Origin: Candidatus Bathyarchaeia archaeon
GTDB taxonomy: Archaea; Thermoproteota; Bathyarchaeia; Bathyarchaeales; Bathycorpusculaceae
NCBI GenBank assembly: GCA_038883795.1
Contig: JAVZLK010000012.1
Coordinates: 1-40,023 of the forward strand
Reading direction: 5' to 3'
Length of the DNA stretch: 40,023 bases
This document shows, one piece after another, positions 658 through 37,361 of this stretch; position 1 is the stretch's first letter; each line of letters starts with the position of its first letter. The translations under genes were made by a program, and so were the position numbers. The notes beneath the pieces were generated by a model, which saw nothing but the letters and a program-made list of their open reading frames with translations, ran no database searches and had not been told where the DNA came from.

Positions 658-750
658 AATATTCTTTGTTGATTGTTAAGCGGGGCGTTGAGTCTTGAAA
701 TATGTTAGTTGCGGCTACGAATTATAATAATTTGAAAAGGACTTTTGATT

Positions 751-1788: not shown

Positions 1789-1793
1789 TAAGG

Positions 1794-2156: not shown

Positions 2157-2391
2157 AGGTTTAAATTTGCGCCCAGCTATATTAAGGGTTAGGAATTTTT
2201 CGTCTATCTAAGATTTGACAGTTTTGTAGAAGAATAGAGAATTTGTCTAGACAACTATCCTAGATTTTTCATACTTATCCATTTAAATACTCGTTTTTGA
2301 ATTTTAATTGGGTGGCGGGGAAAGGACGAGAGATTTCAACGATAAGCCTCTAACCTTTTCGTGTCCGCTTCCGTCAGGGAGGGACTTTATA

Positions 2392-2784: not shown

Positions 2785-2842
2785 ACAGTCACTGAGCAGC
2801 ATCCCCGTCTCTTCTTCAAGAAAGCTCGGTTCACGGTGGGAT

Positions 2843-3650: not shown

Positions 3651-3653
3651 GTT

Positions 3654-4274
3654 TTGAAGATTAGCGAGTATTGGCTTCTCTATTGGACGGTTGTTGGCGT
3701 TTCAGCCTTACTTGCAGCCTCGCCTTTTCTCAGCAAGATATTGGTTTATCCCAGAACAGAATTCTTCACCGAATTTTGGATTTTGGACGCGAATCATAGG
3801 GCTGAAAATTATCCGTTTAACATTTCACGCAATCAAAATTACACCATTTATTTGGGTATCGGCAACCGTTTAGGCTACTGCGCCTACTATATGGTTCAAG
3901 TGAAGTTTTTAAACTGGTCACAGCTAGATCTTATGCCGACCCGTTTTGGACCTATTGAAGAGCGTCTTCCAAGCAGTTTGCCATCACTTTTCAACTTTAC
4001 AGCCTTTGTGGCTGACGAGCATGTTTACGAAATTCCCATAACATTCTCATTCAATTATACTTGGGATCAGCCGCCGTCAAAGGTTGAGCTTTTAAGTTTA
4101 AGGTTTAATGGTGTGTTGCTAAACATGAGTGACTACACGATATCATGCAATGCTGAGAAGGTTGAGTTTCGTGGTTTTCTGTTTTTTGAGCTATGGTTGT
4201 ATAACCATTCGGCTGGCGGTTTTCTGTATCATGGGCGTTTTGTTGGATTATGGTTTAACATGACGGTTAGCTAA
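3654..4274 (+). CDS. DUF1616 family membrane protein
   Basis: N-terminal TM followed by FTEFWIL...AENYP and LGIGNRLG...Y.V.VK motifs; many N-x-S/T sequons. Confidence 0.75.
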   Translation: MKISEYWLLYWTVVGVSALLAASPFLSKILVYPRTEFFTEFWILDANHRAENYPFNISRNQNYTIYLGIGNRLGYCAYYMVQVKFLNWSQLDLMPTRFGPIEERLPSSLPSLFNFTAFVADEHVYEIPITFSFNYTWDQPPSKVELLSLRFNGVLLNMSDYTISCNAEKVEFRGFLFFELWLYNHSAGGFLYHGRFVGLWFNMTVS

Positions 4275-5282
4275 GTGTTTAAGATGGAAACGGAGCTGAG
4301 GGTTGCTGTTGTTGGTTTCGGCAAGATGGGTATGTTACATGCTGGCATTTTGAATGTCTTGCCAAGGGTGAAGCTTGTCGCCATTTGTGAAAAAAGTGGT
4401 TTGGTTCGAAAGTTTTTGAAAAAGGCTGTTAGGAATGTACAAGTCACGGATTGTGTAGAAAAGCTTGCTGGGCTTAGTTTAGACACTGTTTATGTGACTA
4501 CACCTATAGCATCGCATTTTCCAGTTGTTAAAAGCCTCTATGAACGCGGCGCCTGCTGCAATCTTTTTGTGGAGAAGACTCTTGCCTCAAACTTTAAAGA
4601 AGCTCAGGAGCTTTGCGATTTTACGCGAAAGTTTGGAGGCGTCAACATGGTTGGTTATATGCGGCGTTTCTCCGCCACATTTATGAAAGCAAAAAATTTG
4701 TTAGATGAAGGCGCTATTGGCAAACCAATTTCTTTTAAAGCGTATGCCTATTCCTCTGACTTTTTCGGTTTTGATGAAAATTCGAAGGTTCAAACGCCAA
4801 ATGATGGAGTCGTTAGGGATTTGGGCTGTCACGCTTTGGATTTAGCCTTATGGTTTTTTGGAGATTTATGGGTTAAAGATGCAAAAATTGAGTGTGTTGT
4901 GAACAATGGTTCTATGGATTCTGCCCATTTTAGCGTTAAGGCTTCAAGCGGTGTTACCGGCGAGTTTAATGTTTCATGGTGTGTTGACGGATACCGCATT
5001 CCTGAAGTAGGCTTTATGATTGAAGGTTCTGATGGCAGTCTAAACGTGAACGACGATGAATTAGAGGTAAGCCTCAAAAACGGAAAAAGGCAAAAGTGGT
5101 TTAGGCATGGTCTAGGCGACTTTGTTGGTTTTTGGCTTGGAAGCCCGGAATATTACCGCGAGGACAAGCGTTTCGTTGAGGCTGCTCTTCGAGGCGAACC
5201 CGCCGAGCCCTGTTTCGAAACAGCGGCGAAGGTTGACCGCTTGATAGATGAAGTTTTAGCTAAGGCTGGCCGAATTGAATAG
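4275..5282 (+). CDS. Gfo/Idh/MocA family oxidoreductase
   Basis: GFGKMG Rossmann motif, VTTP..SH, EKT (EKP variant), VGYMRRF, DLGCHALD. Confidence 0.9.
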   Translation: MFKMETELRVAVVGFGKMGMLHAGILNVLPRVKLVAICEKSGLVRKFLKKAVRNVQVTDCVEKLAGLSLDTVYVTTPIASHFPVVKSLYERGACCNLFVEKTLASNFKEAQELCDFTRKFGGVNMVGYMRRFSATFMKAKNLLDEGAIGKPISFKAYAYSSDFFGFDENSKVQTPNDGVVRDLGCHALDLALWFFGDLWVKDAKIECVVNNGSMDSAHFSVKASSGVTGEFNVSWCVDGYRIPEVGFMIEGSDGSLNVNDDELEVSLKNGKRQKWFRHGLGDFVGFWLGSPEYYREDKRFVEAALRGEPAEPCFETAAKVDRLIDEVLAKAGRIE

Positions 5283-6177
5283 TAAAGAAATGGTTTTGCT
5301 TGTTGGCGATAACCCGTTCCATGGAATAAGCCATCTTTCACAGGAGAGAAGCCGCGTTAGAGGGGACACGCCAACCAACCCCGAGTATGCGGCTAAGCTT
5401 ATAATGCTTTCAGTCCAGAACGGCGCCGACGGGTTCATGTTTTCTGTCAGCGAGAAAACCCTCTCAATTTTGGATGTTCTGCGGAAGAACGGCGAAAACA
5501 ACGGGTTACGCCTATATGCCATTGTCCCTTATGCTTACGAGTATGTTAGGCTGGCCTGTGCAGCTGGAGGAGTTCCAGGACTAGCCAAAAAGCTGGTTAA
5601 GGAAATTGTTTTTTCTGGGAACCTGCGCGCTGCAGCCTCGGGTCTAAATGGAGTTTTAAGGTCTGATTTGGCTTCGCTTGTTAAGACTTATCTGCTTTAT
5701 GAAGTTTCTAGGGTCAGGCATTCTGCAGGTGGAAAAGCCAAGCTTGAGTCTGTTTTGCTGCATCAGCTTATAACTGATTTGTGCCTCAGTTTAGGCCTAG
5801 ACTGGGTTTTTAGGTTCTATACTGAGTTTTTGCTGAAGGCTGGCATAATTCCCGGGTTTAACACTGGCAATTTTGCCTTTTTGGTGGAAAAGTTTAGGAA
5901 GTGGGACATAAACCTAAACGATGTTGTGATTGCTGCGCCGTTTAACAAGGTTGGCTTCCAAATGGTCCCTTCGAGGGAGGAATGCGAAAAAGTTTTGGGA
6001 AACATGCCAAAACCTAATGTTTTGGCTGTTAGCATCTTGGCGGCTGGCTATCTAAAGCCTGAAGAGGCTGTGGACTATATAGCGGGTTTGCCAAACATAA
6101 AAGGCGTGGCGGTAGGCGTCTCAAAAGAAAAGCATGCCACGGAAACTTTTAAGCTGTTAAGAGAGAAGCTCACATGA
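5275..6177 (+). CDS. conserved hypothetical protein, probable TIM-barrel/aldo-keto-reductase-like fold
   Basis: LLVGDNPFHGISH N-terminus, PFNKVGFQM and SILAAGYL motifs; overlaps the stop of the upstream oxidoreductase. Confidence 0.6.
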   Translation: MNSKEMVLLVGDNPFHGISHLSQERSRVRGDTPTNPEYAAKLIMLSVQNGADGFMFSVSEKTLSILDVLRKNGENNGLRLYAIVPYAYEYVRLACAAGGVPGLAKKLVKEIVFSGNLRAAASGLNGVLRSDLASLVKTYLLYEVSRVRHSAGGKAKLESVLLHQLITDLCLSLGLDWVFRFYTEFLLKAGIIPGFNTGNFAFLVEKFRKWDINLNDVVIAAPFNKVGFQMVPSREECEKVLGNMPKPNVLAVSILAAGYLKPEEAVDYIAGLPNIKGVAVGVSKEKHATETFKLLREKLT

Positions 6178-6189
6178 GCTTTTACTGCT

Positions 6190-6260
6190 GCCGGGGTGGC
6201 CGAGGATTTAGGCGGCAGCCTGCAGAGCTGCTTACGTTGGTGAAAATCCAACCCCCGGCT
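6190..6260 (+). tRNA. tRNA-Cys(GCA) with non-canonical D and T loops
   Basis: Acceptor GCCGGGG/CCCCGGC 7/7, D stem GCC/GGC, anticodon stem GCAGC/GCTGC with loop CTGCAGA (GCA at 6222-6224), 4-nt variable loop, T stem GTTGG/CCAAC with loop TGAAAAT, discriminator U (Cys identity element). CCA not encoded, no intron. Confidence 0.92.
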
Positions 6261-6319
6261 TCATATAATTTGAAGCATGATTTGGAGTCAAAGCAAGATT
6301 AATTGGTTGGGGTATTTTA

Positions 6320-7450
6320 TTGGCGTTTTCTTTGCGTGTGATCAATAATGTCAATTCATTTCTCAAGATAAGGGATAAATGGAATGCTTTTATAATTGGT
6401 AATAGCAATAACCCCTTTCTTTTATGTGAGTTTGTCAAAGGGTTTATGAATCTTGCTTTTTCAAAAAAGTGGCATCCGTTGATTTTCGTTGCATTTTCTA
6501 GCGGGGAAATTGTTGGTATGGCGCCTTTTGTCTTAAAAAGACGTTTTAATGCCTTTTCAGCAGGTTTTCTTTACGCGTCCCACTTTTCCCCAGATTTTCT
6601 TGTGAAGAATGAGTATAGGCGAAGTTTCTTAAACCGCGTGTTCACTTTATTATTTAGGTATTCAGGATGTAAGCTTTTAGATTTAATATTGCCCTCATCA
6701 TCTCCGAACGTTGGCGTTCTTAAATTAATTTGTAAAGAAAATCACATGAAGTTTTGTTCATCTTCCATGGTTTATTTGAGTCATTGCGTTGTTCCCGTTG
6801 AGAGGTCATGGAGCGATTTTGAGAAGATAATGGGAAGTAACTTTCGAAGGTATTTTAAACGAATTGAACGGAAAATGATGGAATCTGGTGGCTATGAAGT
6901 TATTTCTGTAAATAAATTTGATAATTCCGTGCTTGAAGATATCTTTTATGTTGAGCGAAGAAGCTGGAAGGAAAAATGGAGAAGGCAAAAAGGTATAAAT
7001 GCTGACGGAGAACTTATAAAAATTTTAGAAGGTATTAAAGAAATAGATTCTGAATTTTCAACCTTTAAATGGAATATTTGGCTTCTAAAAATTAATGGCG
7101 AGTTAGCATCCTATGCGCTTACTATACAGTTTAAAGACGTCGGATACGTGGTTAAGACATCTTTTAACGAAAAATTCCGGAATTATTACCCAGGTACTTA
7201 TTTAGTCAACGCGGCAGTTAGGGGTTTTTTTGAGCGTACAGCGGTAAAAATAATTGATTTTCAAACAAATCTTCCTTTTATGGAGAAATGGAAACCTATA
7301 ATTTACCCAAGAACAAGAATTATGATGGGACAAGGGAGTCTCTTCTCTTCCATAGCCAACATTTCAACGAACAAAGTTTTTTGTATCCTCAGGGATCAAT
7401 TAGTAGGTCCATTTATTGCTAAACTTCCTTACCTTCCTCTTAGTTTATAG
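6320..7450 (+). CDS. CelD/BcsL family GNAT (Acetyltransf_6; FemAB-like double-GNAT architecture)
   Basis: W near the N-terminus, NPFL, IVGMAPF, NFRRYFKRIERK, SWK, TSFNEKFRNYYPGTYL, DF...FMEKW. Confidence 0.8.
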   Translation: MAFSLRVINNVNSFLKIRDKWNAFIIGNSNNPFLLCEFVKGFMNLAFSKKWHPLIFVAFSSGEIVGMAPFVLKRRFNAFSAGFLYASHFSPDFLVKNEYRRSFLNRVFTLLFRYSGCKLLDLILPSSSPNVGVLKLICKENHMKFCSSSMVYLSHCVVPVERSWSDFEKIMGSNFRRYFKRIERKMMESGGYEVISVNKFDNSVLEDIFYVERRSWKEKWRRQKGINADGELIKILEGIKEIDSEFSTFKWNIWLLKINGELASYALTIQFKDVGYVVKTSFNEKFRNYYPGTYLVNAAVRGFFERTAVKIIDFQTNLPFMEKWKPIIYPRTRIMMGQGSLFSSIANISTNKVFCILRDQLVGPFIAKLPYLPLSL

Positions 7451-7462
7451 AAGATTCGCTTC

Positions 7463-7819
7463 TTGGAGATGTTGAGTTGTTTGAAAGCAAAAAGGTGTGA
7501 AAAGAATTCAAAGTTAAATTTAGTCCCTGGAGAGGTTGTTGAGGTTAAGACGGTCGATGAAATAATGAGTACTTTAGATGAAAAGGGAACTTTAGAAGGT
7601 TTACCATTCATGCCAGAGATGTATAAATACTGCGGCAAGAGATTCAAAGTTTTCAAGCGAGTTAACAAGCTAATTATAGAAGGATTAGGCACGTTACGAA
7701 AAATTGAGAATGTTGTAATTCTTGAAAAAGCAATTTGCAGCGGGGAATACCATGGCGGTTGTAAGAGGTCATGTATGTTGTTGTGGAAGGAAGCATGGTT
7801 AAAGAGGGCAAATCCATAA
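7463..7819 (+). CDS. Cys-rich SH3-like repeat protein, first repeat (probably 5' part of a frameshifted two-repeat gene)
   Basis: LNLVPGEVVEVK...TLD..G...GLPFMPEMYKYCGKRFKVFKRV...CSGEYHGGCKRSC...WKEAWLKR; strongly similar to the C-terminal half of 7771..8391. Confidence 0.75.
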   Translation: MEMLSCLKAKRCEKNSKLNLVPGEVVEVKTVDEIMSTLDEKGTLEGLPFMPEMYKYCGKRFKVFKRVNKLIIEGLGTLRKIENVVILEKAICSGEYHGGCKRSCMLLWKEAWLKRANP

Positions 7820-8391
7820 AAGCCAAGGAAAACAAAGATAAGCCTTTTAGCTGTGCTGAAAACGAGTTTAGTTGCCAATTTACGAATTTAATCAAAGCTA
7901 CTAAACCTATCAGCGCTTGGGATTTCCGTCATTATTTTTGGGAAGCAAAATCTGAAACACGCGACGGGATATTGCAGCTCTTGTCTAGGATGGTCAAGCC
8001 CTTTAAGATTAAAATAGACCTATTTTTTAAATCAGAAAAATATTATTTGAAAAGCAGAAGAAAAACCACGCCAACGGAATCATTAAACCTAAAACCTGGA
8101 GAATTCGTTGAAGTTAAAAGTATAAAGGAAATACTTAAAACACTTGATTCAAGGGGAAGAAATCGCGGATTGGAGTTCATGCCAGAAATGCTGAAATATT
8201 GTGGCAAACGTTTTAGGGTTTTCAAAAGAGTTGATAAGATGATTGATGCTACAGGACGCATTAGGCCGATACATAACACCGTTATTTTGGATGGGGTGAC
8301 TTGTGATGGATCAGCTCATAGAGGCTGTCAGAAAACCTGTTTCTGTCTTTGGAGGGAAATTTGGCTTAAAAGAGTTGGTCAAGACAGATGA
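7771..8391 (+). CDS. Cys-rich SH3-like repeat protein, linker plus second repeat (probably 3' part of the same gene)
   Basis: Overlaps the previous ORF in the -1 frame. Linker FSCQFTNLIKATKPISAWD, then LNLKPGEFVEVK...FMPEMLKYCGKRFRVFKRV...CDGSAHRGCQKTC...WREIWLKRV. Confidence 0.75.
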   Translation: MYVVVEGSMVKEGKSIKAKENKDKPFSCAENEFSCQFTNLIKATKPISAWDFRHYFWEAKSETRDGILQLLSRMVKPFKIKIDLFFKSEKYYLKSRRKTTPTESLNLKPGEFVEVKSIKEILKTLDSRGRNRGLEFMPEMLKYCGKRFRVFKRVDKMIDATGRIRPIHNTVILDGVTCDGSAHRGCQKTCFCLWREIWLKRVGQDR

Positions 8392-9389
8392 GCTTTGCTA
8401 AAGATTTATTGAGACAAACATTAAGGAGGCAGTTACTAATTCGTTCACTTTATCTCCTTCCAAGCTATGTCCAAATCGAGCCAACGGCAAAATGTAACCT
8501 AAGCTGCAAGACTTGCATAAGATCTAGGGCAAACCCGGTTGAAGAAGCTGACATGAATCTCGGTTTGTTTAAATCAATTGTAGACCAGTTAAGGCAATCA
8601 TGGTATAAAACGAGGGCTTTGAACCTCACCGGACTTGGAGAACCATTCATGAACCCAAATTTGGTTCAAATGGTAAGTTACGCCAAAGATAAGGGCTTGA
8701 ACGTTGGTATGAATACCAATTTAACGATGGTAAATGAGGACATATTAAAGAATTTAATAAAGGCCGGACTTGATTGGCTAACGGTTTCCATTGATGGTGC
8801 TACAAAGGAAACGTTTGAAAACATAAGAGTTGGAGCCATATTTGAGGGAGTGGTTGAAAACATAAAGTTCACTATTGATTTAAGGGAAAGGATGAATGCC
8901 AAAAGACCACGAATCTATTTAAACTATACGATATGTGAACAAAATATTCAAGAGATACCGGAAATGATTAAATTAGCTGATGATTTGAGAGTAAATGGCA
9001 TAGGTTTTATGAAACAAGTTGTCCCTGGTATAAGTTATTCAGAAAAGCCACCGCTAAATCCGTTGCCTGAAAATAAGTGGCTCAATAGAAAGATTAAGGC
9101 CACTTTTCACTTGACTGTGGTGTCAAGCTGTGTGGTTCCTAGAAGTTGTTATATAACTTTCGATGGCAAAGTTCTGCCGTGCTATCCTTTATATGAACTT
9201 GTTCCTAGAGGTGAATATTCATCTTACCAATTTGGGGACTTGAGCGCGCAGTCACTCCGTGAAATTTGGTTTTCAATGCGTTATAGAAACTTCCGCGCCA
9301 AAAACATTAGCGGAACACGATTGCCTATATGTAAAAGTTGCCCTTTTGGAAAGGTTGAATTAAACCGAAAAATAGACGCTTCCAGATGA
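8388..9389 (+). CDS. radical SAM protein with SPASM/twitch-like C-terminal domain
   Basis: CNLSCKTC, GLGEPF, NTN, VSIDG...IRVG; C-terminal C...GKVLPC...G.L....L.EIW...CKSC. Confidence 0.92.
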   Translation: MSFAKDLLRQTLRRQLLIRSLYLLPSYVQIEPTAKCNLSCKTCIRSRANPVEEADMNLGLFKSIVDQLRQSWYKTRALNLTGLGEPFMNPNLVQMVSYAKDKGLNVGMNTNLTMVNEDILKNLIKAGLDWLTVSIDGATKETFENIRVGAIFEGVVENIKFTIDLRERMNAKRPRIYLNYTICEQNIQEIPEMIKLADDLRVNGIGFMKQVVPGISYSEKPPLNPLPENKWLNRKIKATFHLTVVSSCVVPRSCYITFDGKVLPCYPLYELVPRGEYSSYQFGDLSAQSLREIWFSMRYRNFRAKNISGTRLPICKSCPFGKVELNRKIDASR

Positions 9390-9437
9390 ACCACCGAAGA
9401 TTTAAAACAGATTTTATGCAGTTTTGTTGGGATTTAT

Positions 9438-10601
9438 TTGAAAGTTAAAGAGGTTGATTTTCAAAGTTTAAAAAATGATTGGGATACACTATTAAACAGA
9501 AATATTTTAGGAAACAACGTTTTTCTTACATGGGAGTGGCTTTCAACGTGGTGGAAACACTTCGGCGAAGGAAGGAAATTACTACTTTTAATCGTTGAAG
9601 ATAAAGGTGAAATTATAGCAATCGCCCCATTAATGTTATCCAAGTATAAACTACCAATTTTCGGCACAATTAAAAAAGTTGAATTCGTTGGAGTTGGGCA
9701 ATCCGACTATAACAATTTTATAATTTTGAAAAAGGAAGCAGAATGTATTAAGTTTATATTAGATTATTTAGTAAATGCAGTGGCGGATTGGGATTGGGTT
9801 GAACTCAAGGAAATCCCAGAAACAAGTGAGAATCTTAATTATTTAGGGAAAGTTTTTGCCAGTACACAGCAGGAGTTAAAACTAAACAAACGTGTCTGTA
9901 ACATGTGCCCCTATATTCCTCTACCAAATTCCTTTGATATGTTACTTAAGAAATTAGGTAGAAACATGAGGCAAAACCTAAATAAGTATTTAAGAAAAAT
10001 TAAATCAAATCATCGTATCATTGAGTTCAAAAAGTACGATGAAACAGGTTTTTCCGTGGCAGATGCTATGAAGCTTTTTACGAAGTTGCATGAGGCAAGA
10101 TGGACCGCTGAAGGATCAGGCGGAGCTTTTAAGAACAACCCATGCTTCCGTAACTTTCATTTTGAAGTAGCGGAAATCTTTGCTAATAAAGGGTGGTTAG
10201 GGCTTTATTTTCTACTAGTCGACCATGAACCTGTTTCAACACAATACGCCTTTGAGTACGAAGGCAAAATATACTATTACTTAGGAGGTTTCAATCCGGA
10301 GTACTCCCGATATTCCGTGGGAAATCTAACTATAATGTTTCTTTTAGAAAGAGGTATACAAAAAGGTTTTAAAGAATATGACATGATGAGAGGAAACGAA
10401 CCATACAAGTTATTTTGGACACGCAATGTTAGAAGAAATTTTGAGATAAGACTTGTAAAGAAGGGAATAACCAGAAAGGTTTACAATTGGTTGACATGGA
10501 GCGACGTAGTCAATAGTCTTGCTGCAAAATTAAAGCTCTCATTAAAAATGGACTGTGCCCAGCAAATTTTAAGGAGCGTTTCTAATGAGCCAAAAAAATA
10601 A
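9438..10601 (+). CDS. CelD/BcsL family GNAT (Acetyltransf_6; FemAB-like double-GNAT architecture)
   Basis: FLTWEWLSTWW, IAIAPL, SDY, RQNLNKYLRK, LH..RW, YYYLGGFNPEYSRYSVG, YDMMRGNEPYK..W. Confidence 0.9.
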   Translation: MKVKEVDFQSLKNDWDTLLNRNILGNNVFLTWEWLSTWWKHFGEGRKLLLLIVEDKGEIIAIAPLMLSKYKLPIFGTIKKVEFVGVGQSDYNNFIILKKEAECIKFILDYLVNAVADWDWVELKEIPETSENLNYLGKVFASTQQELKLNKRVCNMCPYIPLPNSFDMLLKKLGRNMRQNLNKYLRKIKSNHRIIEFKKYDETGFSVADAMKLFTKLHEARWTAEGSGGAFKNNPCFRNFHFEVAEIFANKGWLGLYFLLVDHEPVSTQYAFEYEGKIYYYLGGFNPEYSRYSVGNLTIMFLLERGIQKGFKEYDMMRGNEPYKLFWTRNVRRNFEIRLVKKGITRKVYNWLTWSDVVNSLAAKLKLSLKMDCAQQILRSVSNEPKK

Positions 10602-11268
10602 AGTAATAGTAGTATTTGCTCCACATCCTGATGATGAGACATTTGGATGCGGTGGAACAATTGCTAAAAAAATTAGCGAAGGTTTTAATGTTTTAGTGGT
10701 TGTAATGACTGATGGCAGAAACCTGTTAAAAAGTATTCTAAACATTGAAGATGATCCTCCGCCTAACGATGTTAAAGACATTAGAAGAAAAGAGGTGCTT
10801 AAAGCCACTAAAATTCTCGGTATACCTCATGATAATGTAATATTTTTTGATTTCGAGGATGGGTGTCTCAGCGATTATGAAGCGGAAGCCGAGGAGAAAG
10901 TTTGTGAAATATTGAGTCGTTATCGGCCTGTTGAGGTGTATCTTCCATTTGAAAATGATGGCCATAGGGATCACATAGTGACGAATAGAATAGTGAAAAA
11001 ATGTGTAAAAGAGCTTAATTTGGAGCCTGAAATGTATCAATATTGTATTATGCATAAGTTTGCACGCTTCGGACCAATATTTGAGAGAATAATAGGCTTA
11101 TTTAGAAAAAACATTGTTAAAGTGGATGTTTCGCAATTCTTGAAGATCAAAGAATTGGCTGTCAAGGAGTTTAAGAGTGAGTTTTCTATAATTTCAAGCA
11201 AGCAAAGTAAACCTTTAGAAGATAAAATCGATAAATACCTAAAAAAGAATGAGTTCTTCTTCCGATAA
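10585..11268 (+). CDS. PIG-L/LmbE family N-acetyl-sugar deacetylase (MshB/BshB-like)
   Basis: APHPDDETFGCGG, TDG, RRKE, DG, GHRDH metal-binding and catalytic motifs. Confidence 0.92.
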   Translation: MSQKNKVIVVFAPHPDDETFGCGGTIAKKISEGFNVLVVVMTDGRNLLKSILNIEDDPPPNDVKDIRRKEVLKATKILGIPHDNVIFFDFEDGCLSDYEAEAEEKVCEILSRYRPVEVYLPFENDGHRDHIVTNRIVKKCVKELNLEPEMYQYCIMHKFARFGPIFERIIGLFRKNIVKVDVSQFLKIKELAVKEFKSEFSIISSKQSKPLEDKIDKYLKKNEFFFR

Positions 11269-11316
11269 TTAAGGAGAACTACTTACCAAAATAATTCTAA
11301 TGTTAAAGCGATTGAA

Positions 11317-12429
11317 ATGATACAGTTTTTGTTTTTAATTTCTCTATTCATCTTCTTGACAACTTATTCAGTATACTTTCCCTACCTAAGCAGGTATGCT
11401 AAGAAATCTTGGAATATTAAAGTTGATATCTCATTTGAGCCTGAAATGTCAATCTTAATTCCCGCACATGACGAAGAAGATAACATAGAGGCAAAGCTCG
11501 AAAACATTAGAAATGTTTCATATCCCAAAGCGAAGATCGAAATAATAGTGGCAGATGACGGTTCAATTGATAATACGGTGCAAAAGGTTCAAAGTTTTAT
11601 GCAAAGATACCCAGATTTTAAAATTAAATTGGTGAAGCAGAATCCGCGGGCTGGAAAATCAGCTGCATTAAATAAAGCATTGCTAGTTTGTACTAAACCT
11701 ATTATAGTTGTTTCCGATGCGGACACAAGGTGGCCCCCAGATATTTTAAGGAAAGCTATGCCCTATCTGGCTGATCCAAGTGTTGGCGCTGTTACTGGGC
11801 GAGGCGTAAACTTGAATGCTGAGGAGTCATGGGTGACTAGGGCTGAAGAATCATACTTGCAGCTTGTGAATTTATTGAGGCTTGGCGAATCAAAGATTCA
11901 TTCAACAATAAGATTTGAGGGTGGATTCTGTGCTTATAAGCGAACTGCCTTTGATATGTTTGATTGTGAGACAGGTTCAGACGATTCTGGAACGGCGTTG
12001 AGGGTTGTCTCCAAGGGTTACCGAAGCATATTAGTTCCAGAAGTTATATTTTATACGAATTTTCCACCAAGCTTCACCGCGAAGTTTAGAATTAAGGTTC
12101 GGCGTGCCAATCAGTTGATTGGATTATGGTTTAAATGTCTAAAGCTTCTTTTTGGAAGGAATCTTTCTCTGCCTAAAAAAATAGCGGTACCTGAAATAGC
12201 GCTGTTTATCTTTAACCCAATGGTATTTTTGTTGTCGACAGTCAGCGGCATGATTTTAGTAATTATGAATCCATTTTCTCCGTTAAGTTTGGCGATCATT
12301 TTTTCGGTTTTAATCTCATTAGTTTTGGCGAGGCAAGCCTTTATTGAGCTTCTTATTGATAACATCATTTTGGCCTATGCCACAACCACTTTCCTGTTTG
12401 GTCGGCGTTATGTTGCTTGGGGAAGATGA
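11317..12429 (+). CDS. membrane GT2 glycosyltransferase (cellulose-synthase-like layout)
   Basis: IPAHDEE, DDGS, GKSAALN, DAD, SDD, and KVRRA in place of QxxRW; N- and C-terminal TM segments. Confidence 0.88.
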   Translation: MIQFLFLISLFIFLTTYSVYFPYLSRYAKKSWNIKVDISFEPEMSILIPAHDEEDNIEAKLENIRNVSYPKAKIEIIVADDGSIDNTVQKVQSFMQRYPDFKIKLVKQNPRAGKSAALNKALLVCTKPIIVVSDADTRWPPDILRKAMPYLADPSVGAVTGRGVNLNAEESWVTRAEESYLQLVNLLRLGESKIHSTIRFEGGFCAYKRTAFDMFDCETGSDDSGTALRVVSKGYRSILVPEVIFYTNFPPSFTAKFRIKVRRANQLIGLWFKCLKLLFGRNLSLPKKIAVPEIALFIFNPMVFLLSTVSGMILVIMNPFSPLSLAIIFSVLISLVLARQAFIELLIDNIILAYATTTFLFGRRYVAWGR

Positions 12430-12442
12430 TTAAAACAGAACT

Positions 12443-13345
12443 TTGGTGATTATATTGGGCTTGGTTGGATTGGCTGAATGTAAAAACCGAAGTGCCAACT
12501 TGATTAAAGAAGCTGTTCGAGAAGCGCTTAAATTAATTGATTTCTCATTTCCTAAGGCTAAAAAAATAGTTATTAAGCCAAATATGTGTTATTACTGGGA
12601 TTGGTCTACTGGACAAACCACAGATCCAATGTTTGTTGTTGCATTGATAAACCTACTTCGGGAGGAAATTTCTGAAGACGTTGAAATTTCTGTTGTAGAA
12701 TCCGATGCATCAGCTATGAAGTGTAAGTATGCCTTCAAGCATTTGGGTTATGAAAAGCTTGCGAAAGAGTATGATGTGAACTTAGTTAATCTTTCTGAAA
12801 CCGAATCCGAAAAAACATCAGTGAAAGTTGAAAATGAGATCTTTGAGTTTTTGGTTCCTAAGATCATAAAAGACGCGGATTTACGTGTGAATGTTCCTAA
12901 GATGAAGTATATGAATTTCACAAAAATTTCTGGTGCATTAAAAAACATTTATGGATGCAATCCTTACCCAAAGAAGTTTCAGTACCATTCGAAACTAAAT
13001 GAGGTAATTGTAGCATTGAATAAAGTTATGCCGTTCAACCCGCATATCCTTGATGGTTTAACCGTTTGCGGCTCGAAAACTTTAAGACTAGGACTTGTTA
13101 TGGCAAGCCAAGATCCAGTGGCTATGGATGCTGTTGTCTCAACAATTTTGGGCATTAACCCTAGATCCGTGACGCATATAAAACTTGCAGAAAAGGAAGG
13201 TTTGGGAAGCACTTCTTACATAGAAAGAGGAGTGAACTTAGACTACTTTAAAAGGAAATATCCTAGAAGAAAGTTTTCAGAAAAGGTTTTGTCTTTTGGG
13301 TACATGGCCGTGTGCAAATTGGGTTTAGATAAACGCTTAATATAA
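12443..13345 (+). CDS. DUF362 domain protein
   Basis: IVIKPN, TTDP, VPKMK, SGALKN.YG, DG, S.DPVAMD motifs. Confidence 0.85.
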   Translation: MVIILGLVGLAECKNRSANLIKEAVREALKLIDFSFPKAKKIVIKPNMCYYWDWSTGQTTDPMFVVALINLLREEISEDVEISVVESDASAMKCKYAFKHLGYEKLAKEYDVNLVNLSETESEKTSVKVENEIFEFLVPKIIKDADLRVNVPKMKYMNFTKISGALKNIYGCNPYPKKFQYHSKLNEVIVALNKVMPFNPHILDGLTVCGSKTLRLGLVMASQDPVAMDAVVSTILGINPRSVTHIKLAEKEGLGSTSYIERGVNLDYFKRKYPRRKFSEKVLSFGYMAVCKLGLDKRLI

Positions 13346-13359
13346 AGCCGTGAGAAGTT

Positions 13360-14358
13360 ATGGAAAAAGTTAATTTAGGCATTATCGGGCTTGGTTTTAT
13401 AGGTAAAGTTCACTTAAGAAACAGCATTAAATTGAAATCTGCCAAGGTTTTAGCTGTTGCGGATGTATCTAGGAGGGCTTTAGACTATGCTAGAAACTTC
13501 GGCGTTAAACATTTGTTCACAGATTACCATAGTCTATTAAAATTTAGAGATGTTGATGCTGTGATAATTTCACTTCCTACTCATCTTCATGCGGAGTGCG
13601 CAATAAGTGCAATGGAAGAAGGAAAACATGTTTTTTTGGAGAAGCCTCTTGCAAGGAATCCAGAAGAAGGAGAAAAAATAGTTTCAACTGCAAATAAAAA
13701 TGGTGTAAAATTAATTGTAGGTTATCCTTTGAGGTTTGTTCCTGAATTTAAAAAGCTTAAGGAGGAAATTGAAAGTGGAGTTTTAGGGGACGTGCAGATA
13801 GCGCACGCTGTTAACATTGGCGCTGGTCCTTTTTTCCATAGGGCTGAGAGCACTATACCTAAGCCCGTTCCAGAGTGGTGGCTTAATAAAGACTTGACTG
13901 GTGGGGGAGTGTTAACAGACTTGGGGAGCCATATGATAAATTTGACACGCTGGTACTTTGGGGAAGTCAAGGAAATTAAAGCTTGCCTCGGTTACCGCTT
14001 TAATTTAGATGTTGAAGATCATGCAATATGTATTGCTGATTTTAACTCCGGAGTAAAAGCTGTCATAAATGTGGGTTGGTTTTCTCAAAAAGCAGCTATA
14101 GGCATTGAGTTATACGGAACGATAAGCCATTTCAGTTTTTTTGAACATCCACAAAATAAAGTGATGACGGCTATAAACTTAATTTTTGGTAAATTGCCGA
14201 AATTCTTTAAGCCTTACTTTGCTGAGCTGAAGCAATTCGTTGATTGTATAAAAAATGATGAGGGAGTTCCTATTCCTTCTGGTTATGATGCGTTAGAAGA
14301 TTTGAAGGTAATAGCTAAAGCATATAGAAATCAATTGCTTGATGCTGCCTTATCATAG
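13360..14358 (+). CDS. Gfo/Idh/MocA family oxidoreductase (probable NDP-sugar dehydrogenase)
   Basis: GLGFIG, LPTHLH, LEKP, GGGVLTDLGSH. Confidence 0.92.
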   Translation: MEKVNLGIIGLGFIGKVHLRNSIKLKSAKVLAVADVSRRALDYARNFGVKHLFTDYHSLLKFRDVDAVIISLPTHLHAECAISAMEEGKHVFLEKPLARNPEEGEKIVSTANKNGVKLIVGYPLRFVPEFKKLKEEIESGVLGDVQIAHAVNIGAGPFFHRAESTIPKPVPEWWLNKDLTGGGVLTDLGSHMINLTRWYFGEVKEIKACLGYRFNLDVEDHAICIADFNSGVKAVINVGWFSQKAAIGIELYGTISHFSFFEHPQNKVMTAINLIFGKLPKFFKPYFAELKQFVDCIKNDEGVPIPSGYDALEDLKVIAKAYRNQLLDAALS

Positions 14359-14382
14359 AAGCGCCTTTGTGGGAGACACATT

Positions 14383-15276
14383 ATGCCATCTAAACCAATT
14401 GTAACCGTGGGTGTTTGTGTTAAGAACTGTGCTCAAATAATTTGTGATGCTATTGAAAGTATTTTAGTGCAGGATTATCCTCACGAGCTTATGGAAGTGA
14501 TTTTCGTTGACGATGGCAGCGAAGACGAAACTCTCTCGATAATAAAAGAATATGCTTCTAGAATGAAAATGAAAGTTAAGGTTTTTCATCATAAGTGGCG
14601 TGGTCTTGGTTTTTCAAGAAATGTGGTGGTAAATAATGCGGAGGGTAAACACATTATTTGGGTAGATGGAGACATGGTGTTGCCGAAGGATTTTATTAGA
14701 AAGCAAGTAGCCTTTATGGAAGCGCATCCGGAAGCTGGAATTGGCAAAGGCCAATATGGCTTATTTGAAACGAGCAACCTCATTGAGTACCTAGAAAATA
14801 TAAGCGCTTTTTTAGAATTCACTAAGAGCGATTTAAACCAAAATTACAAACCTCTTGGCACGGGCGGTTCGATCTACAGAACTGAGGCAATTAAGAAAAT
14901 TGGAGGCTTTAATAGCGCGCTTAAAGGCGTAGGCGAAGATATGGACGTGGAATTGAGAATGATCAAAGCTGGATGGAAGTTGTTCATAACCCCCGCAACT
15001 TTTTACGAAAAACGGAGGCGAAGCTGGAAAATGTTGTGGAATGAATACTTTTGGCATGGCTGCGGTGGAAAGAACATAAAAAGAGAACTGAAACAATTTC
15101 GAGGGATACTCCCTAAATTCTTTCCCTCAGTCGCGCTTTTAATTATTGTTTCACGAGCAATTTCAGCTTACAAAATAACTCGAAACAAAGCATCCTTCTT
15201 ACTTCCTTTACATTGGATTTTCAAGAGGACCGCATGGGTAGCTGGTTTTCTGTTCGGGTCTTCGACTAAATACTGA
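14383..15276 (+). CDS. GT2 glycosyltransferase
   Basis: VDDGSED, RN, WVDGD, GGF, GED motifs; paralog of 16046..16975. Confidence 0.92.
   Translation: MPSKPIVTVGVCVKNCAQIICDAIESILVQDYPHELMEVIFVDDGSEDETLSIIKEYASRMKMKVKVFHHKWRGLGFSRNVVVNNAEGKHIIWVDGDMVLPKDFIRKQVAFMEAHPEAGIGKGQYGLFETSNLIEYLENISAFLEFTKSDLNQNYKPLGTGGSIYRTEAIKKIGGFNSALKGVGEDMDVELRMIKAGWKLFITPATFYEKRRRSWKMLWNEYFWHGCGGKNIKRELKQFRGILPKFFPSVALLIIVSRAISAYKITRNKASFLLPLHWIFKRTAWVAGFLFGSSTKY
14467..14555 (+). repeat. 89-bp perfect direct repeat, copy 1
   Basis: GTGCAGGATTATCCTCACGAG...TAAAAGAATATGC is identical to 16151-16239. Confidence 0.95.
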
Positions 15277-15312
15277 TTAAAGATAAGGATATTCCAGTAG
15301 TCGGAATGCAGC

Positions 15313-16044
15313 ATGAAAAGCCTGATTGTCTTTGCACCACATCCTGATGACGAAACACTAGGATGTGGCGGAACTATAGTCAAAAAGATCAGAGAAGGCT
15401 ACGAAGTTTTTGTTGTTTATATGACTGATGGCAGATACGCCTTAACAGAAGTTGGAGAAAACAAAATTTTAGATCCTTTAGATATGAAAGAGCAAAGAAG
15501 AAAAGATGCATTAAAAGCCGCAGAAATATTGGGTTTAAAAGAAAAAAATTTGTGTTTTCTCGACATTGAAGATAAAACATTAAAAAGGCATAAGCAATAC
15601 GCACAAAAAATTGTTTTTGAAATCATGAAGAACATTAAGCCTTCAGAGATTTTTTTTCCTCAAGAGAAAGAGTATAACCTGGATCATCAAATGACACATG
15701 TTATTGTCGAAGTAGTGTGTGAAAGATTAAAGGTTAACCCGATTAAATATCAATATTCAATTGCTTGGATGTTTCCATTCTACCTCTTAAACCATCTTAC
15801 AAATGAAGGCATATTTGACTTCATAATGTGTCGTTATTTAAAATGCAACATGGTTCGTGTGGATATTTCTAAGTTCTTGCCAGTTAAGGAAATGGCAATA
15901 AAAGCCTATCGTAGCCAGAGGTTGCTTCTTTCAAACAAACAAAAACAACCAGCCCTTAAAGCCTCCTTTATATCGCGCTTCTTAAGGAATTACGAGAAAT
16001 TCTTTGTCAAACGCCCATATTGTGAGTATGCTGATCGTGGCTGA
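15313..16044 (+). CDS. PIG-L/LmbE family deacetylase
   Basis: APHPDDETLGCGG, TDG, RRKD, YNLDH (HxDH variant), YRSQ. Confidence 0.9.
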   Translation: MKSLIVFAPHPDDETLGCGGTIVKKIREGYEVFVVYMTDGRYALTEVGENKILDPLDMKEQRRKDALKAAEILGLKEKNLCFLDIEDKTLKRHKQYAQKIVFEIMKNIKPSEIFFPQEKEYNLDHQMTHVIVEVVCERLKVNPIKYQYSIAWMFPFYLLNHLTNEGIFDFIMCRYLKCNMVRVDISKFLPVKEMAIKAYRSQRLLLSNKQKQPALKASFISRFLRNYEKFFVKRPYCEYADRG

Positions 16045-16045
16045 T

Positions 16046-16975
16046 ATGGAAGGAAACAACAACGAGCTTATAAACAGACCTAAAGTTACCATTGGGGTCT
16101 GCGTCAGAAATTGTGAGAATACGATAAGAAAGGCTATTGAGAGTGTTATGGTGCAGGATTATCCTCACGAGCTTATGGAAGTGATTTTCGTTGACGATGG
16201 CAGCGAAGACGAAACTCTCTCGATAATAAAAGAATATGCGTCAAAAATGGACATGAAAGTCAAAATATTCCACCATAGATGGAAAGGGTTAGGTGCATCG
16301 AGAAACGTCGTTGTCAAAAACGCTTCAGGAGAATATATCATCTGGGTTGACGGTGATATGATAATTCCGAAGGACCACGTACGGAAACAGGTTGTTTTTA
16401 TGGAGGAAAATCCAAATGTAGGAATAGCTAAAGCTAAGTATGGAATATCCAATAATCAGAGTTTAGTCGCTAAATTAGAGGATGTTCCTTTTGTTATCAT
16501 AAGTTTGCAAAATCATGTAGATGGTTTAAAACTATCTGGAACTGGAGGTTCAATTTATAAGACCATCGCAATTCGTCAAGTAGGAGGTTTCGATGAAAGT
16601 TTAAGTGGAGTAGGTGAGGATTTAGACGCAGTATACAGAATATTGCAAACCGGTTGGATTATTCGAGGTAGCCCAGCAATCTTTTTTGAGATCAGAGAAA
16701 CGACTTGGAAAAGTATATGGAGAAAATATGTATGGTATGGTTATGGAAACTTTTTTGTATATTCTAAAAATAAATCAGTTTTTAAGCTTTACAAAATGAT
16801 TCCACCCGCCGGATTTTTGACCGGTCTCTTCTACTCATTCCATGCATATAGGCTGTTGTGCCAAAAGGAAGTTTTCCTTTTGCCTCTGCATTTTCTTTTT
16901 AAGTCGTTTGCTTGGTATGTTGGCTTTTTGTGGGCATATTTCAAAAAGAAAAATCGGGAGCTCATTAAGTGGTAA
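16046..16975 (+). CDS. GT2 glycosyltransferase
   Basis: VDDGSED, WVDGD, GGFDE, GED motifs. Start placed at ATG 16046, just after the upstream stop (ORF track start 16004). Confidence 0.92.
   Translation: MEGNNNELINRPKVTIGVCVRNCENTIRKAIESVMVQDYPHELMEVIFVDDGSEDETLSIIKEYASKMDMKVKIFHHRWKGLGASRNVVVKNASGEYIIWVDGDMIIPKDHVRKQVVFMEENPNVGIAKAKYGISNNQSLVAKLEDVPFVIISLQNHVDGLKLSGTGGSIYKTIAIRQVGGFDESLSGVGEDLDAVYRILQTGWIIRGSPAIFFEIRETTWKSIWRKYVWYGYGNFFVYSKNKSVFKLYKMIPPAGFLTGLFYSFHAYRLLCQKEVFLLPLHFLFKSFAWYVGFLWAYFKKKNRELIKW
16151..16239 (+). repeat. 89-bp perfect direct repeat, copy 2
   Basis: Identical to 14467-14555; flanking bases differ on both sides. Confidence 0.95.
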
Positions 16976-35276: not shown

Positions 35277-37361
35277 TTGCTCGAACGTTTTAATATGGTG
35301 AAATTCGTGAAGAAGCTTAAACAGTATTCCTTGAAAGCTTTCACATACATAAGAACCTACTACAAGCATATTCTGGCAGTTTTCTTAATACTCTCTCTAA
35401 TTCTAATTGTTTACTGGCGTGACTTGGAAGTTTTAGTTAACGAAGTCTTAAGCACGGAAGCCCTAACCCACATAATGCTAATACCCTTTCTAGCTGGTTT
35501 CCTATTTTATCGAAAAAGGGAAATGGTTAAAGCCTCATTATCTTTAGATAAGCTTCAGAAAACACAAAAAACACGCTACATAGATGGATTTATCGGATTA
35601 AGCCTCTGCCTCATCGCTTTTCTCCTATACTGGTATGGCTCCTACACCTTCCATCCACTAGAATATCACATGCTTTCCTTGCCCATATTCACTGCAGGAA
35701 TCATCATTATACTTTTTAATCTAAAAACATTAAAAGTTTTGATATTTCCCATTTTATTCCTTCTTTTTCTGGTTCCGTTTCCGCCAGAGGTTATGTCTAC
35801 ACTTGGAGGAAGCCTTGCAAACTTTAACACACAAGCTTCATACGCGCTGCTTAAACCCTTCGGGGTTCCAGTTACGTTATCTACAGCCTACGGAGCCCCT
35901 ACGATATTATTGCAAACATCAGATGGGCATTCAACATCCTTTACCATTGACTTACCTTGCTCCGGAATCTACACATTTATAGCTTTAACAATGTTCGCCG
36001 CATTTCTATCCCTTACCGTGTTAACGTCGACTTTTAAGAAAATTTCTATATTTGTAATTGGTTTTGTCGTATTCGAAGTTTTAAACATTGTACGCATAAC
36101 AACAATTATCTTTACAGCACATTTCTTCGGCGAGGAAGTTGCCATGCTCATTTTCCACTCAATTGCTGGCTTACTCCTAACATTTGCGGGTATGCTGCTT
36201 ACACTTTTTGCGTCAGAGAAACTTTTAAAGATAAATTTTCTTTCTAAAGCGAATCTGCCTCAATGTCCAAGATGTAAATTAGCATTAAAAAAGTTGGAAG
36301 ATTTTTGTTTAAATTGTGGAAAATTTCTTAACTCGTGGAAGTGGAAGCCTTCTCAAACTTTTTGGGCTAAACTTCTTGTTCTATTGCTAGGCTGTTCAGC
36401 CGTAGTACTCAGCATAAATGCACCAGTTTTCGCCATAGCTAAAGATGAAATTAATGTTAAATCAACATGGGAAAATATAACAGACATTTTTCCGGCAATG
36501 CCCCACTACGAATTGAAGTTTCTATACAGGGACGTCAATTATGAACGGATATCCAGGCAGGACGCCTCACTGGTATATGCTTACTTTCCATCGAATTTTT
36601 CAAATCCGCCTGTATATGTTCTCATCAGTGTGGCAAATAGCATATCTAACCTTCACAACTGGGAAGTCTGCCTCATATCGTGGCAAACAGCTCAAGGAAG
36701 GTATCCGCTAGTCAAAGTACTCGACTCAAAAGACATACAGCTACTCGAAGGCCCCATCATAGCGCGATATTTGGTTTTTCAGAACACCGAGCAAAACTAC
36801 ACCCAAGTAACACTTTACTGGTATGAAAAAGCCGCGTTTAAGATAGGGACCACCGTACAACAGAAATATGTGAGAATAAGCTTGATAATTTTGACGAGAA
36901 ACCCAGCCGATTATAAACGATATGAAAAACAACTTTTAGATTTCGGCGAAGCTATAGCCCTATACTTAGAACCAATAAAAACCCACTCGCTGATTTCTTT
37001 GGGCATACCAACCCAACAAACCCTCCTTATTCTATCAATAATTTTCATAATAACGGCAAAATCGACCCAATATCTAAATGAATGGCGAAAAAGGATTAAT
37101 AACCTTAAAATTTTCAATAATTTTGCCTCTCCCAAGGACAAACTAGTATTTGGAGCAATCACAGAACTAAGCGAAGCGAAAAAAGTGGCAACTGCCGCGG
37201 ACATAAATGATGCAATCAAAATGAAAGTTGGCAAGCACCTGAAAATTGAAAGACTTGTAGAAAGATTGAATCGTTTACAAGAGTATGGTTTTGTAAAAAT
37301 GGACATAATATCAAACGATAATAAGCCCACACTTGTCTGGAAAAGTTTAGTTAACCTCTAG
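35277..37361 (+). CDS. exosortase/archaeosortase family protein fused to Zn ribbon, EpsI-like and wHTH-like domains
   Basis: H..LIPF, LLFLVPFP, IDLPCSG (Cys), LNIVRI (Arg), IFHSIAG (His); then CPRC..CLNC, TM, LHNWEVCL...LYWY (EpsI-like), TM, and terminal ADINDAI...RLNRLQEYGFV...W. Start may be ATG 35295. Confidence 0.88.
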   Translation: MLERFNMVKFVKKLKQYSLKAFTYIRTYYKHILAVFLILSLILIVYWRDLEVLVNEVLSTEALTHIMLIPFLAGFLFYRKREMVKASLSLDKLQKTQKTRYIDGFIGLSLCLIAFLLYWYGSYTFHPLEYHMLSLPIFTAGIIIILFNLKTLKVLIFPILFLLFLVPFPPEVMSTLGGSLANFNTQASYALLKPFGVPVTLSTAYGAPTILLQTSDGHSTSFTIDLPCSGIYTFIALTMFAAFLSLTVLTSTFKKISIFVIGFVVFEVLNIVRITTIIFTAHFFGEEVAMLIFHSIAGLLLTFAGMLLTLFASEKLLKINFLSKANLPQCPRCKLALKKLEDFCLNCGKFLNSWKWKPSQTFWAKLLVLLLGCSAVVLSINAPVFAIAKDEINVKSTWENITDIFPAMPHYELKFLYRDVNYERISRQDASLVYAYFPSNFSNPPVYVLISVANSISNLHNWEVCLISWQTAQGRYPLVKVLDSKDIQLLEGPIIARYLVFQNTEQNYTQVTLYWYEKAAFKIGTTVQQKYVRISLIILTRNPADYKRYEKQLLDFGEAIALYLEPIKTHSLISLGIPTQQTLLILSIIFIITAKSTQYLNEWRKRINNLKIFNNFASPKDKLVFGAITELSEAKKVATAADINDAIKMKVGKHLKIERLVERLNRLQEYGFVKMDIISNDNKPTLVWKSLVNL

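Follow-up and report, generated by a model that had tools for sequence, protein, structure and literature searches.

What role could a diverged tRNA-Cys gene play at the head of a surface-glycan operon in an uncultured archaeon? The question is raised by a 40,023-nucleotide (nt) stretch of a Candidatus Bathyarchaeia archaeon (GenBank assembly GCA_038883795.1, contig JAVZLK010000012.1, positions 1 to 40,023 of the forward strand), referred to here as the window. A sequence-only reading of the window had proposed that an atypical tRNA-Cys supplies the cysteine with which a de-N-acetylated sugar is re-acylated. Following up this proposal by sequence and structure comparison, we give an even chance to the reading that the odd tRNA-Cys serves outside the ribosome as a dedicated source of Cys-tRNA for FemX-like transferases, which would act on an amino sugar; we infer that it is charged with cysteine, kept from the ribosome and used as a donor, and we likewise infer the acceptor and the product. 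The features on which the proposal turns are the following.

6190..6260, + strand: diverged extra tRNA-Cys(GCA), the odd tRNA-Cys (ARAGORN and Rfam)
6320..7450, + strand: GNAT1, a double-GNAT protein of the Fem superfamily (Acetyltransf_6; Pfam 2.5e-9)
9438..10601, + strand: GNAT2, a FemX-like double-GNAT protein (Acetyltransf_6; Pfam 6.8e-28)
10585..11268, + strand: PIG-L 1, a PIG-L family de-N-acetylase (Pfam 2e-29), overlapping GNAT2 by 17 nt
15313-16044, + strand: PIG-L 2, of the same family (Pfam 4.9e-28)

The only tRNA called by ARAGORN in the window is the tRNA-Cys(GCA) at 6190-6260 on the + strand, and it scored 53.6 bits against the Rfam tRNA model (gathering score 29). All seven acceptor-stem pairs are Watson-Crick, the anticodon and T stems are both fully paired (5/5), and the D stem has three pairs and a G13.A22 mismatch that is also found in the canonical tRNA-Cys. 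The variable loop has 4 nt, the discriminator is T (U73), and CCA is not encoded. The D loop (AGGATTT) is without GG in the usual register, the T loop reads TGAAAAT compared to the canonical TTCAACT, and the 51-63 pair is U51-A63, compared to G51-C63 in the canonical tRNA. The earlier description of a tRNA-Cys that lacks the D-loop GG and the T-loop TTC was thus borne out, within an intact cloverleaf, as was its position 59 nt upstream of a GNAT gene, the 6320-7450 open reading frame (ORF) that matches Acetyltransf_6 at 2.5e-9.

Intact stems, together with an intact anticodon and discriminator, would also suit an ordinary if unusual translational isoacceptor, co-expressed to raise Cys decoding for the Cys/His-rich protein and Fe-S enzymes of the operon. 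In one metagenome locus, L114, the tRNA stands directly before a Cys/His-rich 309-aa gene, and the window has a homologue of that gene and a radical SAM/SPASM enzyme. However, without U55 and the G18/G19 register the tRNA lacks elbow contacts that are nearly universal, the Cys-rich gene is missing from most sister operons, and the documented tRNAs with TGN for TTC are, according to the available part of PMC7826273, kept out of translation. We consider a translational isoacceptor quite improbable.

The odd tRNA-Cys is an extra, diverged copy and not a habit of the lineage. The genomes compared were metagenome-assembled genomes (MAGs), and that of the window (G000) comprises 2.18 Mb in 81 contigs and is 87% complete. 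It has two further tRNA-Cys genes, C5:450-522 and C39:189-261, which are identical to each other and canonical, with a D loop of AACGGTTC and a T loop of TTCAACT. Both lie near contig ends, with 260 nt of flanking sequence that is 89.6% identical between them, and may either result from a true duplication or come from two strains mixed in the MAG. When the odd tRNA was compared by BLAST with 41 related genomes, matches were obtained in 27 and 30 loci were fetched. The tRNA-Cys gene was canonical in 27 of the 29 cases that could be read from these loci, and the odd form occurred only in G000 and in G026, of the same order and a different family. Among the matches listed for the same-genus genomes G001-G004 the odd form did not occur, and GNAT2 was found in none of the three same-genus genomes searched. 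A canonical tRNA-Cys was also present in each of the four genomes that carry the TGAAAAT form (G000, G026, G308 and G392). The proposal therefore survives on both counts: the odd gene is not the only tRNA-Cys of its genome, and its loops are not standard among relatives.

Pattern scans, which are blind to protein genes, located further copies. A strict T-arm pattern yielded true copies in 4 of 401 genomes of the order; the other four pattern matches were not tRNAs. With a longer pattern, 185,579 species genomes gave seven stretches, all in Bathyarchaeia MAGs and six of them on contigs already known, and metagenome contigs gave 11 stretches, in Bathyarchaeia records only. The cluster genes were present at these stretches wherever the flank was long enough. 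Inspection of the 20-kb neighbourhoods of GNAT2 homologues added the T-loop variants TGCAAAT, TGAAAAC and TGAAACT and, in two genomes, TTCAAGT or TTCAAAT, which the strict pattern had missed.

The association with the enzymes was then assessed from the protein side, at 42 GNAT2 loci: the window, G308, the 20 top-scoring further places of 77 listed, and 20 lower-ranked ones, a sample that is ranked by score and not random. The 77 listed places fall in the 59 of 401 genomes that have a homologue. Where a GNAT2 homologue and a PIG-L gene lie within about 2.2 kb on the same strand, the odd tRNA-Cys or a remnant of it was present in 14 of 15 loci (intact in seven, with a single mismatch in two, decayed in five), compared to 1 of the 27 other GNAT2-homologue loci, the damaged copy of G185. 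The suggested check, co-occurrence of the odd tRNA with Acetyltransf_6 and PIG-L genes in relatives, thus came out in favour of the proposal. GNAT2 is the most conserved enzyme partner of the tRNA, and its pairing with PIG-L is conserved in the sister loci. Two Fem-superfamily genes were present in all 12 of the odd-tRNA loci with at least 10 kb downstream, and the carrier genomes have only two to three full-length Fem-superfamily genes in all.

Without exception the tRNA heads the operon on the operon's own strand, immediately before the first gene at a distance of typically 20-120 nt, and upstream of it lies either a DUF1616 gene or a GFO/IDH/MocA gene and a gene for a 300-aa protein. The fullest operon consists of the tRNA, a hisC-like aminotransferase, one or more methyltransferases, a lysA-like decarboxylase, an ATP-grasp protein and a FemX-like protein, followed by GFO/IDH/MocA, DUF362, GNAT2, PIG-L, and GT2 onward. 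In the window version, GNAT1, the Cys/His-rich gene and the radical SAM gene replace the segment from the aminotransferase to the Fem gene. The first gene after the tRNA varies among loci: aminotransferase, GNAT2 paralogue, ATP-grasp, GNAT1, Cys/His-rich protein or GT2. Two operons carry the tRNA twice, one copy preceding a GNAT2 paralogue and the other an ATP-grasp gene; the copies are identical in G313 (L082, G313:C4; 14981-15051 and 17144-17214) and diverged in G247 (L085, G247:C6; 11099-11170 and 14659-14730).

An alignment of 15 copies indicated what is retained. The anticodon GCA and the discriminator T are invariant, the anticodon loop YTGCAGA is kept in all intact copies, and a pair of the G15-C48 type is kept in most. 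TG occupies positions 54-55 in 13 of the 15 copies, the remaining two retaining TTC, and the canonical GG register is found in none. Standard pairs are formed in 92% of stem cells, and 8 of 21 pairs change on both sides, with compensatory changes spanning four families of the order; none of 500 shuffles reached the observed values, and slid controls fell to 26-55% pairing. Across families (G000 and G026) the odd tRNA is 90% alike, compared to 78-82% with the canonical tRNA of its own genome. Because of the invariant GCA and T73, the covariation and the cross-family likeness, the cloverleaf and the Cys identity elements appear, from the alignment, to be under selection in much of the lineage. 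By eye, pairing between positions 19 and 56 across the variants is suggestive, with D loops that are not reliably alignable.

These observations bear on a further explanation, in which the gene is an old tRNA-Cys duplicate, now without function, that is carried along on the border of a glycan island (mobile or variable), perhaps as a former integration site, and is drifting to a pseudogene. Such a relic would account for the visible decay of 5 of the 14 cluster copies and of the G185 copy, and for the absence of the cluster from same-genus genomes. It would also suit the 3' fragment of another tRNA at 564-589 and the G+C content of the island, which drops at the tRNA from 0.43-0.44 (window 1-6000) to 0.36-0.38 (6001-16000); this drop and the absence from same-genus genomes fit a glycan operon that is an accessory island. 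Yet a drifting relic is hard to reconcile with compensatory changes at 8 of 21 pairs in four families, with 92% of cells paired, with invariant Cys identity elements, with a likeness across families (90%) that exceeds that to the genome's own canonical tRNA (78-82%), or with a 3' half that is not repeated in the 40-kb window at up to three mismatches. A relic of this kind seems to us improbable.

Use of the tRNA as an integration site was considered separately and rejected. A search of the 40-kb window with the 3' 16 nt of the odd tRNA, allowing up to three mismatches, found no match besides the gene itself, and the fragment at 564-589 belongs to another tRNA. That fragment is the 26-nt 3' end of a different tRNA (GGGTTCAAATCCC...CCA); it has no 5' half and is unrelated to the odd tRNA-Cys.

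The fixed position of the gene suggests another possibility, namely that the tRNA-like gene is an operon-head element, such as a strong promoter, an RNase P/tRNase Z processing site that releases the mRNA downstream, or a sensor of Cys charging, and that the Fem-like enzymes use ordinary aminoacyl-tRNAs or acyl-CoA. Such an element would explain why the tRNA shares the operon's strand throughout and immediately precedes a first gene that varies, why second copies precede internal genes in G313 and G247, and why clusters persist with decayed copies. Processing, however, needs neither anticodon nor discriminator, yet all 15 copies have both GCA and U73, the intact ones keep YTGCAGA, and most copies keep the G15-C48 type pair. 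Nor is a promoter box at a fixed distance evident: the 70 nt upstream of 22 copies, inspected by eye, contain A/T-rich boxes, none of them at a fixed distance. We regard an operon-head element as unlikely, and return to the reading of the odd tRNA-Cys as a dedicated donor and to the enzymes that might use it.

The clearest Fem proteins are those of the sister loci. This family (8 sequences) matched S. aureus FemX (6SNR, 4e-18), W. viridescens FemX (7e-10) and Pfam FemAB (4.3e-14), and the lysine motif WRWKREW is present in 8 of 8. The GNAT2 family aligned with it over its full length (hhalign probability 94.4%, E 9e-8, 306 columns), and the GNAT2 motif YKxxW, with K324, was found in 18 of 18 sequences; its lysine aligns to that of the Fem WKREW motif and to the FKK of S. 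aureus FemX, a mapping made by profile alignment and not by superposition. In the FemX of W. viridescens, Lys305 is the one reactive residue of the active site, according to the available part of PMC12945691. GNAT1 belongs to a rare family with 12 database relatives. This family (13 sequences) aligned strongly with the GNAT2 family (probability 99.4%, E 4e-21) and directly with the sister Fem family at a probability of only 5.6%, the link running through GNAT2.

AF2 models of both window proteins (pLDDT 85.2 for GNAT2 and 87.0 for GNAT1) have two tandem GNAT-like domains in a FemX-like topology. When the models were compared with the PDB by Foldseek, the top match of both was W. viridescens FemX (target TM 0.67 for GNAT2 and 0.65 for GNAT1, E about 1e-12), and the other best matches were S. 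aureus FemX and FemA, Sbb17/Sba18 (E 1e-9 to 5e-10) and aminoacyl-phosphatidylglycerol synthases (MprF). Sequence searches of the PDB with GNAT1 and GNAT2 gave nothing meaningful, a match to SV40 large T (E 0.08) being taken as chance. Pfam FemAB had no match in G000, GNAT2 had no NCBIfam match, and GNAT1 had a weak match to BspF only. The claim that both GNATs are Fem-like accordingly stands for the fold of both; at the level of the lysine it stands for GNAT2 (18 of 18) and fails for GNAT1 (0 of 13). Since GNAT2 keeps the catalytic lysine and GNAT1 does not, GNAT2 appears to be the better candidate transferase in the window, and GNAT1, the protein encoded beside the tRNA, may work differently or be non-catalytic.

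The anticodon GCA and U73 are the main identity elements for CysRS. The odd tRNA-Cys keeps both, and a CysRS is present in G000 (527.7 bits, cut-off 340), so charging with Cys by the housekeeping enzyme would be the simplest expectation. Models for SepRS and SepCysS gave only sub-threshold matches in this 87% complete genome, and a phosphoserine route to Cys-tRNA was rejected.

The acceptor side of the proposal rests on the PIG-L enzymes. PIG-L 1 and PIG-L 2 scored 78.8 and 88.8 bits against the BshB1 model (NCBIfam cut-off 182.5) and 32.8 and 21 bits against the MshB model (cut-off 224). A thiol pathway of the mycothiol or bacillithiol type, which the sequence-only reading had entertained, is not indicated by scores so far under the cut-offs. 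The same chemistry might nevertheless end not in a surface glycan but in a soluble thiol of low molecular weight, analogous to mycothiol or bacillithiol. The PIG-L proteins are related to BshB and MshB, the donor would be Cys, and MshD-like tandem GNAT folds are among the weaker structural matches. Apart from the low BshB/MshB scores, what speaks against a soluble product is the setting: the operon lies amid GT2/GT4 genes, a Wzx-type flippase, a DUF2206 membrane protein and an exosortase, and the sister loci encode an aminotransferase, a decarboxylase, an ATP-grasp protein and an amidotransferase whose nearest models include those of XrtA/PEP-CTERM exopolysaccharide systems. A soluble thiol is, in our judgement, very improbable.

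The reading that we prefer remains one in which a cysteine is delivered by a dedicated tRNA to a surface sugar. The odd tRNA-Cys would be a functional, cluster-dedicated paralogue, transcribed with or just ahead of the envelope-glycan operon and charged by the ordinary CysRS. Its remodelled elbow (U55 to G, no G18/G19 register and an altered 51-63 pair) would divert Cys-tRNA from translation to the FemX-like transferases. GNAT2 in the window, or GNAT2 together with Fem in the sister loci, would then attach the cysteinyl group to the free amine of a sugar intermediate, an amine freed by PIG-L or made by way of the 3-dehydrogenase-like GFO enzyme, with the aminotransferase where present. Incorporation of the product into a surface polymer would fall to the GT2/GT4 enzymes, the flippase and the exosortase-linked machinery. 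The original idea of re-acylating a de-N-acetylated sugar with Cys from a dedicated tRNA is supported in part, by the diverged extra tRNA, the recurrent linkage to Fem and PIG-L genes, the FemX folds and the presence of CysRS; GNAT1 as the catalyst is the part that did not hold. The most specific form of the proposal is tentative, and we would sooner doubt it than accept it: that Bathyarchaeia keep a non-ribosomal tRNA-Cys lineage at the head of an envelope-glycan operon, and that its elbow steers Cys-tRNA away from aEF1A and the ribosome and towards FemX-like transferases, which cysteinylate an amino sugar of an exosortase-linked polymer.

Several observations count against this interpretation. 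On the tRNA side, the intact copies of G124 and G056 keep a TTC T loop, and the T-loop change is therefore not shared by all copies. Decay is seen in 5 of the 14 cluster copies: that of G269 has two acceptor mismatches and a shortened T arm, those of G358 and G233 combine a mismatch in the anticodon stem with T at position 37, G322 retains a broken remnant, and G085 retains the 5' half only. The G185 copy, outside these clusters, has a damaged anticodon loop of 6 nt. The tRNA is therefore dispensable in those five clusters, which persist without it; such decay fits a supply line for which the canonical Cys-tRNA could stand in, and it equally weakens the claim that the tRNA is required. As to linkage, a hisC-like aminotransferase, not a GNAT, follows the tRNA in 11 sister loci, the exceptional locus G010 (a 14.1-kb contig) has GNAT2 and PIG-L and no tRNA-Cys, and many of the Fem-superfamily paralogues that these genomes carry are not near a tRNA. 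The loci are moreover homologous and share ancestry, and the counts therefore overstate independent support. On the enzyme side, the FemX catalytic lysine is absent from all 13 GNAT1 sequences, whose motif F[MLSQH]xxW has M, L, S, Q or H instead. Acyl-CoA tandem GNATs (2wpw, MshD and VipF) also match the fold, mostly at lower TM, and thus the fold alone cannot tell the donor.

The remaining genes of the window place the tRNA within a larger envelope locus, as follows.

3654-4274, + strand: DUF1616 protein, conserved upstream block
4275-5282, + strand: GFO/IDH/MocA oxidoreductase, conserved upstream block
5275-6177, + strand: 300-aa protein of an unnamed family, conserved upstream block, stopping 13 nt before the tRNA
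7463..8391, + strand: Cys/His-rich protein gene, two overlapping ORFs in different frames (7463-7819 and 7771-8391)
8388..9389, + strand: radical SAM/SPASM protein (Pfam Radical_SAM 3.6e-17, SPASM 4.3e-14)
11317..12429, + strand: GT2 glycosyltransferase, conserved in sister loci (Pfam, synteny)
12443..13345, + strand: DUF362 protein, conserved module member (Pfam 7.3e-37, synteny)
13360..14358, + strand: GFO/IDH/MocA oxidoreductase resembling UDP-GlcNAc 3-dehydrogenase, conserved module member (Pfam, synteny)
14383-15276, + strand: GT2 glycosyltransferase
16004-16975, + strand: GT2 glycosyltransferase
35277..37361, + strand: long exosortase-like protein in the same envelope island (best NCBIfam model XrtA)

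The arrangement described earlier was confirmed: the second GNAT gene (9438-10601) overlaps PIG-L 1 (10585-11268) by 17 nt, and PIG-L 2 (15313-16044) is flanked by the GT2 genes at 14383-15276 and 16004-16975. The GFO/IDH/MocA protein at 13360-14358 scored 150.7 bits against NCBIfam NF040723, under the cut-off of 450. The 300-aa upstream protein has no Pfam or NCBIfam family, and in the Atlas it neighbours only unnamed clusters of bacteria and archaea. Between G000 and G026, from two families of the order, it is 72% identical, and its gene ends 13-30 nt before the odd tRNA-Cys in many loci. A homologue was found in L031 (9044-9973), and the gene is absent from that position in G308.

The Cys/His-rich gene, which has no Pfam family, may contain a frameshift or an assembly error in the window. 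In the metagenome locus L114 an unbroken 309-aa homologue (11099-12028, about 49% identical) directly follows the odd tRNA-Cys, and a 2354-aa ORF (3743-10807) lies directly upstream of that tRNA. The radical SAM/SPASM protein has no NCBIfam match above cut-off and no homologue in the sister loci compared. Further downstream, the window carries GT4 genes, the DUF2206 membrane protein, the Wzx-type flippase and the long exosortase-like protein. A long exosortase-like gene (about 690 aa) lies about 29-33 kb downstream of the odd tRNA-Cys on the same contig in three genomes (the window, G026:C11:76858-77685 and G308:C1:149840-150655), which suggests one large envelope island.

Within the literature searched, dedicated non-translational tRNAs that feed a Fem transferase are documented only in staphylococci. 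If the proposal is correct, the odd tRNA-Cys would, within the same literature, be the first dedicated non-proteinogenic tRNA in Archaea and its reaction the first tRNA-dependent glycan aminoacylation there, an independent origin of the staphylococcal type of solution with cysteine, a glycan locus and an operon-encoded tRNA. It would add a tRNA-dependent step to archaeal envelope chemistry and imply thiol-bearing surface sugars in very abundant uncultured archaea. The unexplained FemAB-like genes of exosortase-linked polysaccharide loci, as in bacterial PEP-CTERM systems, would likewise gain a function open to test. The natural variants (TGA and TGC T loops, copies that keep TTC, and decaying copies) provide a series in which to seek the elbow features that separate translation from non-ribosomal use.

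How the locus relates to known systems can be considered from several sides. The deacetylate-then-cysteinylate logic and the PIG-L family are shared with mycothiol and bacillithiol synthesis, where MshB/BshB, of the PIG-L family, de-N-acetylates the GlcNAc unit and MshC/BshC then attach cysteine to the amine so exposed. Of these, MshC, a paralogue of CysRS, depends on ATP and works without tRNA. In contrast, the genes here lie in a surface-polymer locus and the PIG-L proteins score under the cut-offs. A tRNA-Cys gene likewise lies inside the operon of its enzymes in the SepRS/SepCysS operons of Bathyarchaeota BA2 and others, from the same phylum, as described in the available part of PMC5424206. 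Those operons differ in that their Cys-tRNA serves translation; G000 has CysRS, and neither SepRS nor SepCysS above cut-off. The literature searched, which covered papers and not their supplements, contained no archaeal operon-encoded tRNA-Cys with Fem-like genes.

Likeness to the XrtA/PEP-CTERM systems is seen in the exosortase of the window island, whose best model is XrtA, and in the sister-locus proteins. The sister Fem protein had TIGR03019 as its best match (58.6 bits, cut-off 260), the 625-aa amidotransferase had TIGR03108 as its best match (290 bits, cut-off 817), and the decarboxylase scored 125.6 bits against TIGR03099 (cut-off 478) and better, 270.1 bits, against lysA. All of the XrtA/PEP-CTERM scores are below cut-off, and the sister proteins are therefore not equivalogs. 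The text of the PEP-CTERM paper of 2006 (PMC1569441) names no Fem, tRNA or decarboxylase, and no tRNA gene is mentioned for the bacterial XrtA/PEP-CTERM systems in the literature searched. Orf11/Sbb17/Sba18, which acylate the amino sugar streptothrisamine (PMC12945691; PDB 9wqw, 9wqx and 9wqy), share the double-GNAT fold and an acceptor amine on a sugar-like scaffold, a similarity between Sbb17/Sba18 and the window GNATs that the sequence search did not detect. They differ in belonging to bacterial antibiotic pathways that use Gly-tRNA, with no dedicated tRNA mentioned in the available part of that paper.

The closest system is that of the staphylococcal FmhB(FemX)/FemA/FemB transferases and their tRNA-Gly. 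According to the available part of PMC7826273, the genes for the non-proteogenic tRNA-Gly have TGC or TGT for the T-loop TTC, and not the GUG for GUU given in the sequence-only reading, which does not appear in that part. The tRNAs carry dihydrouridine at position 19, their first three T-stem pairs are weaker for EF-Tu, and FmhB reads determinants in the D and T arms. Common to both systems are an extra isoacceptor, a TGN T loop, loss of the 18/19 guanines, a weaker 51-63 pair (U51-A63 in the window) and Fem-family double-GNATs as the presumed users. In the window, by contrast, the enzymes are relatives of Acetyltransf_6 and not FemAB by Pfam. The host is an archaeon, the amino acid would be Cys and not Gly, the tRNA gene lies inside a biosynthetic operon and is decaying in several lineages, and the locus is one for a glycan or exopolysaccharide and not for peptidoglycan.

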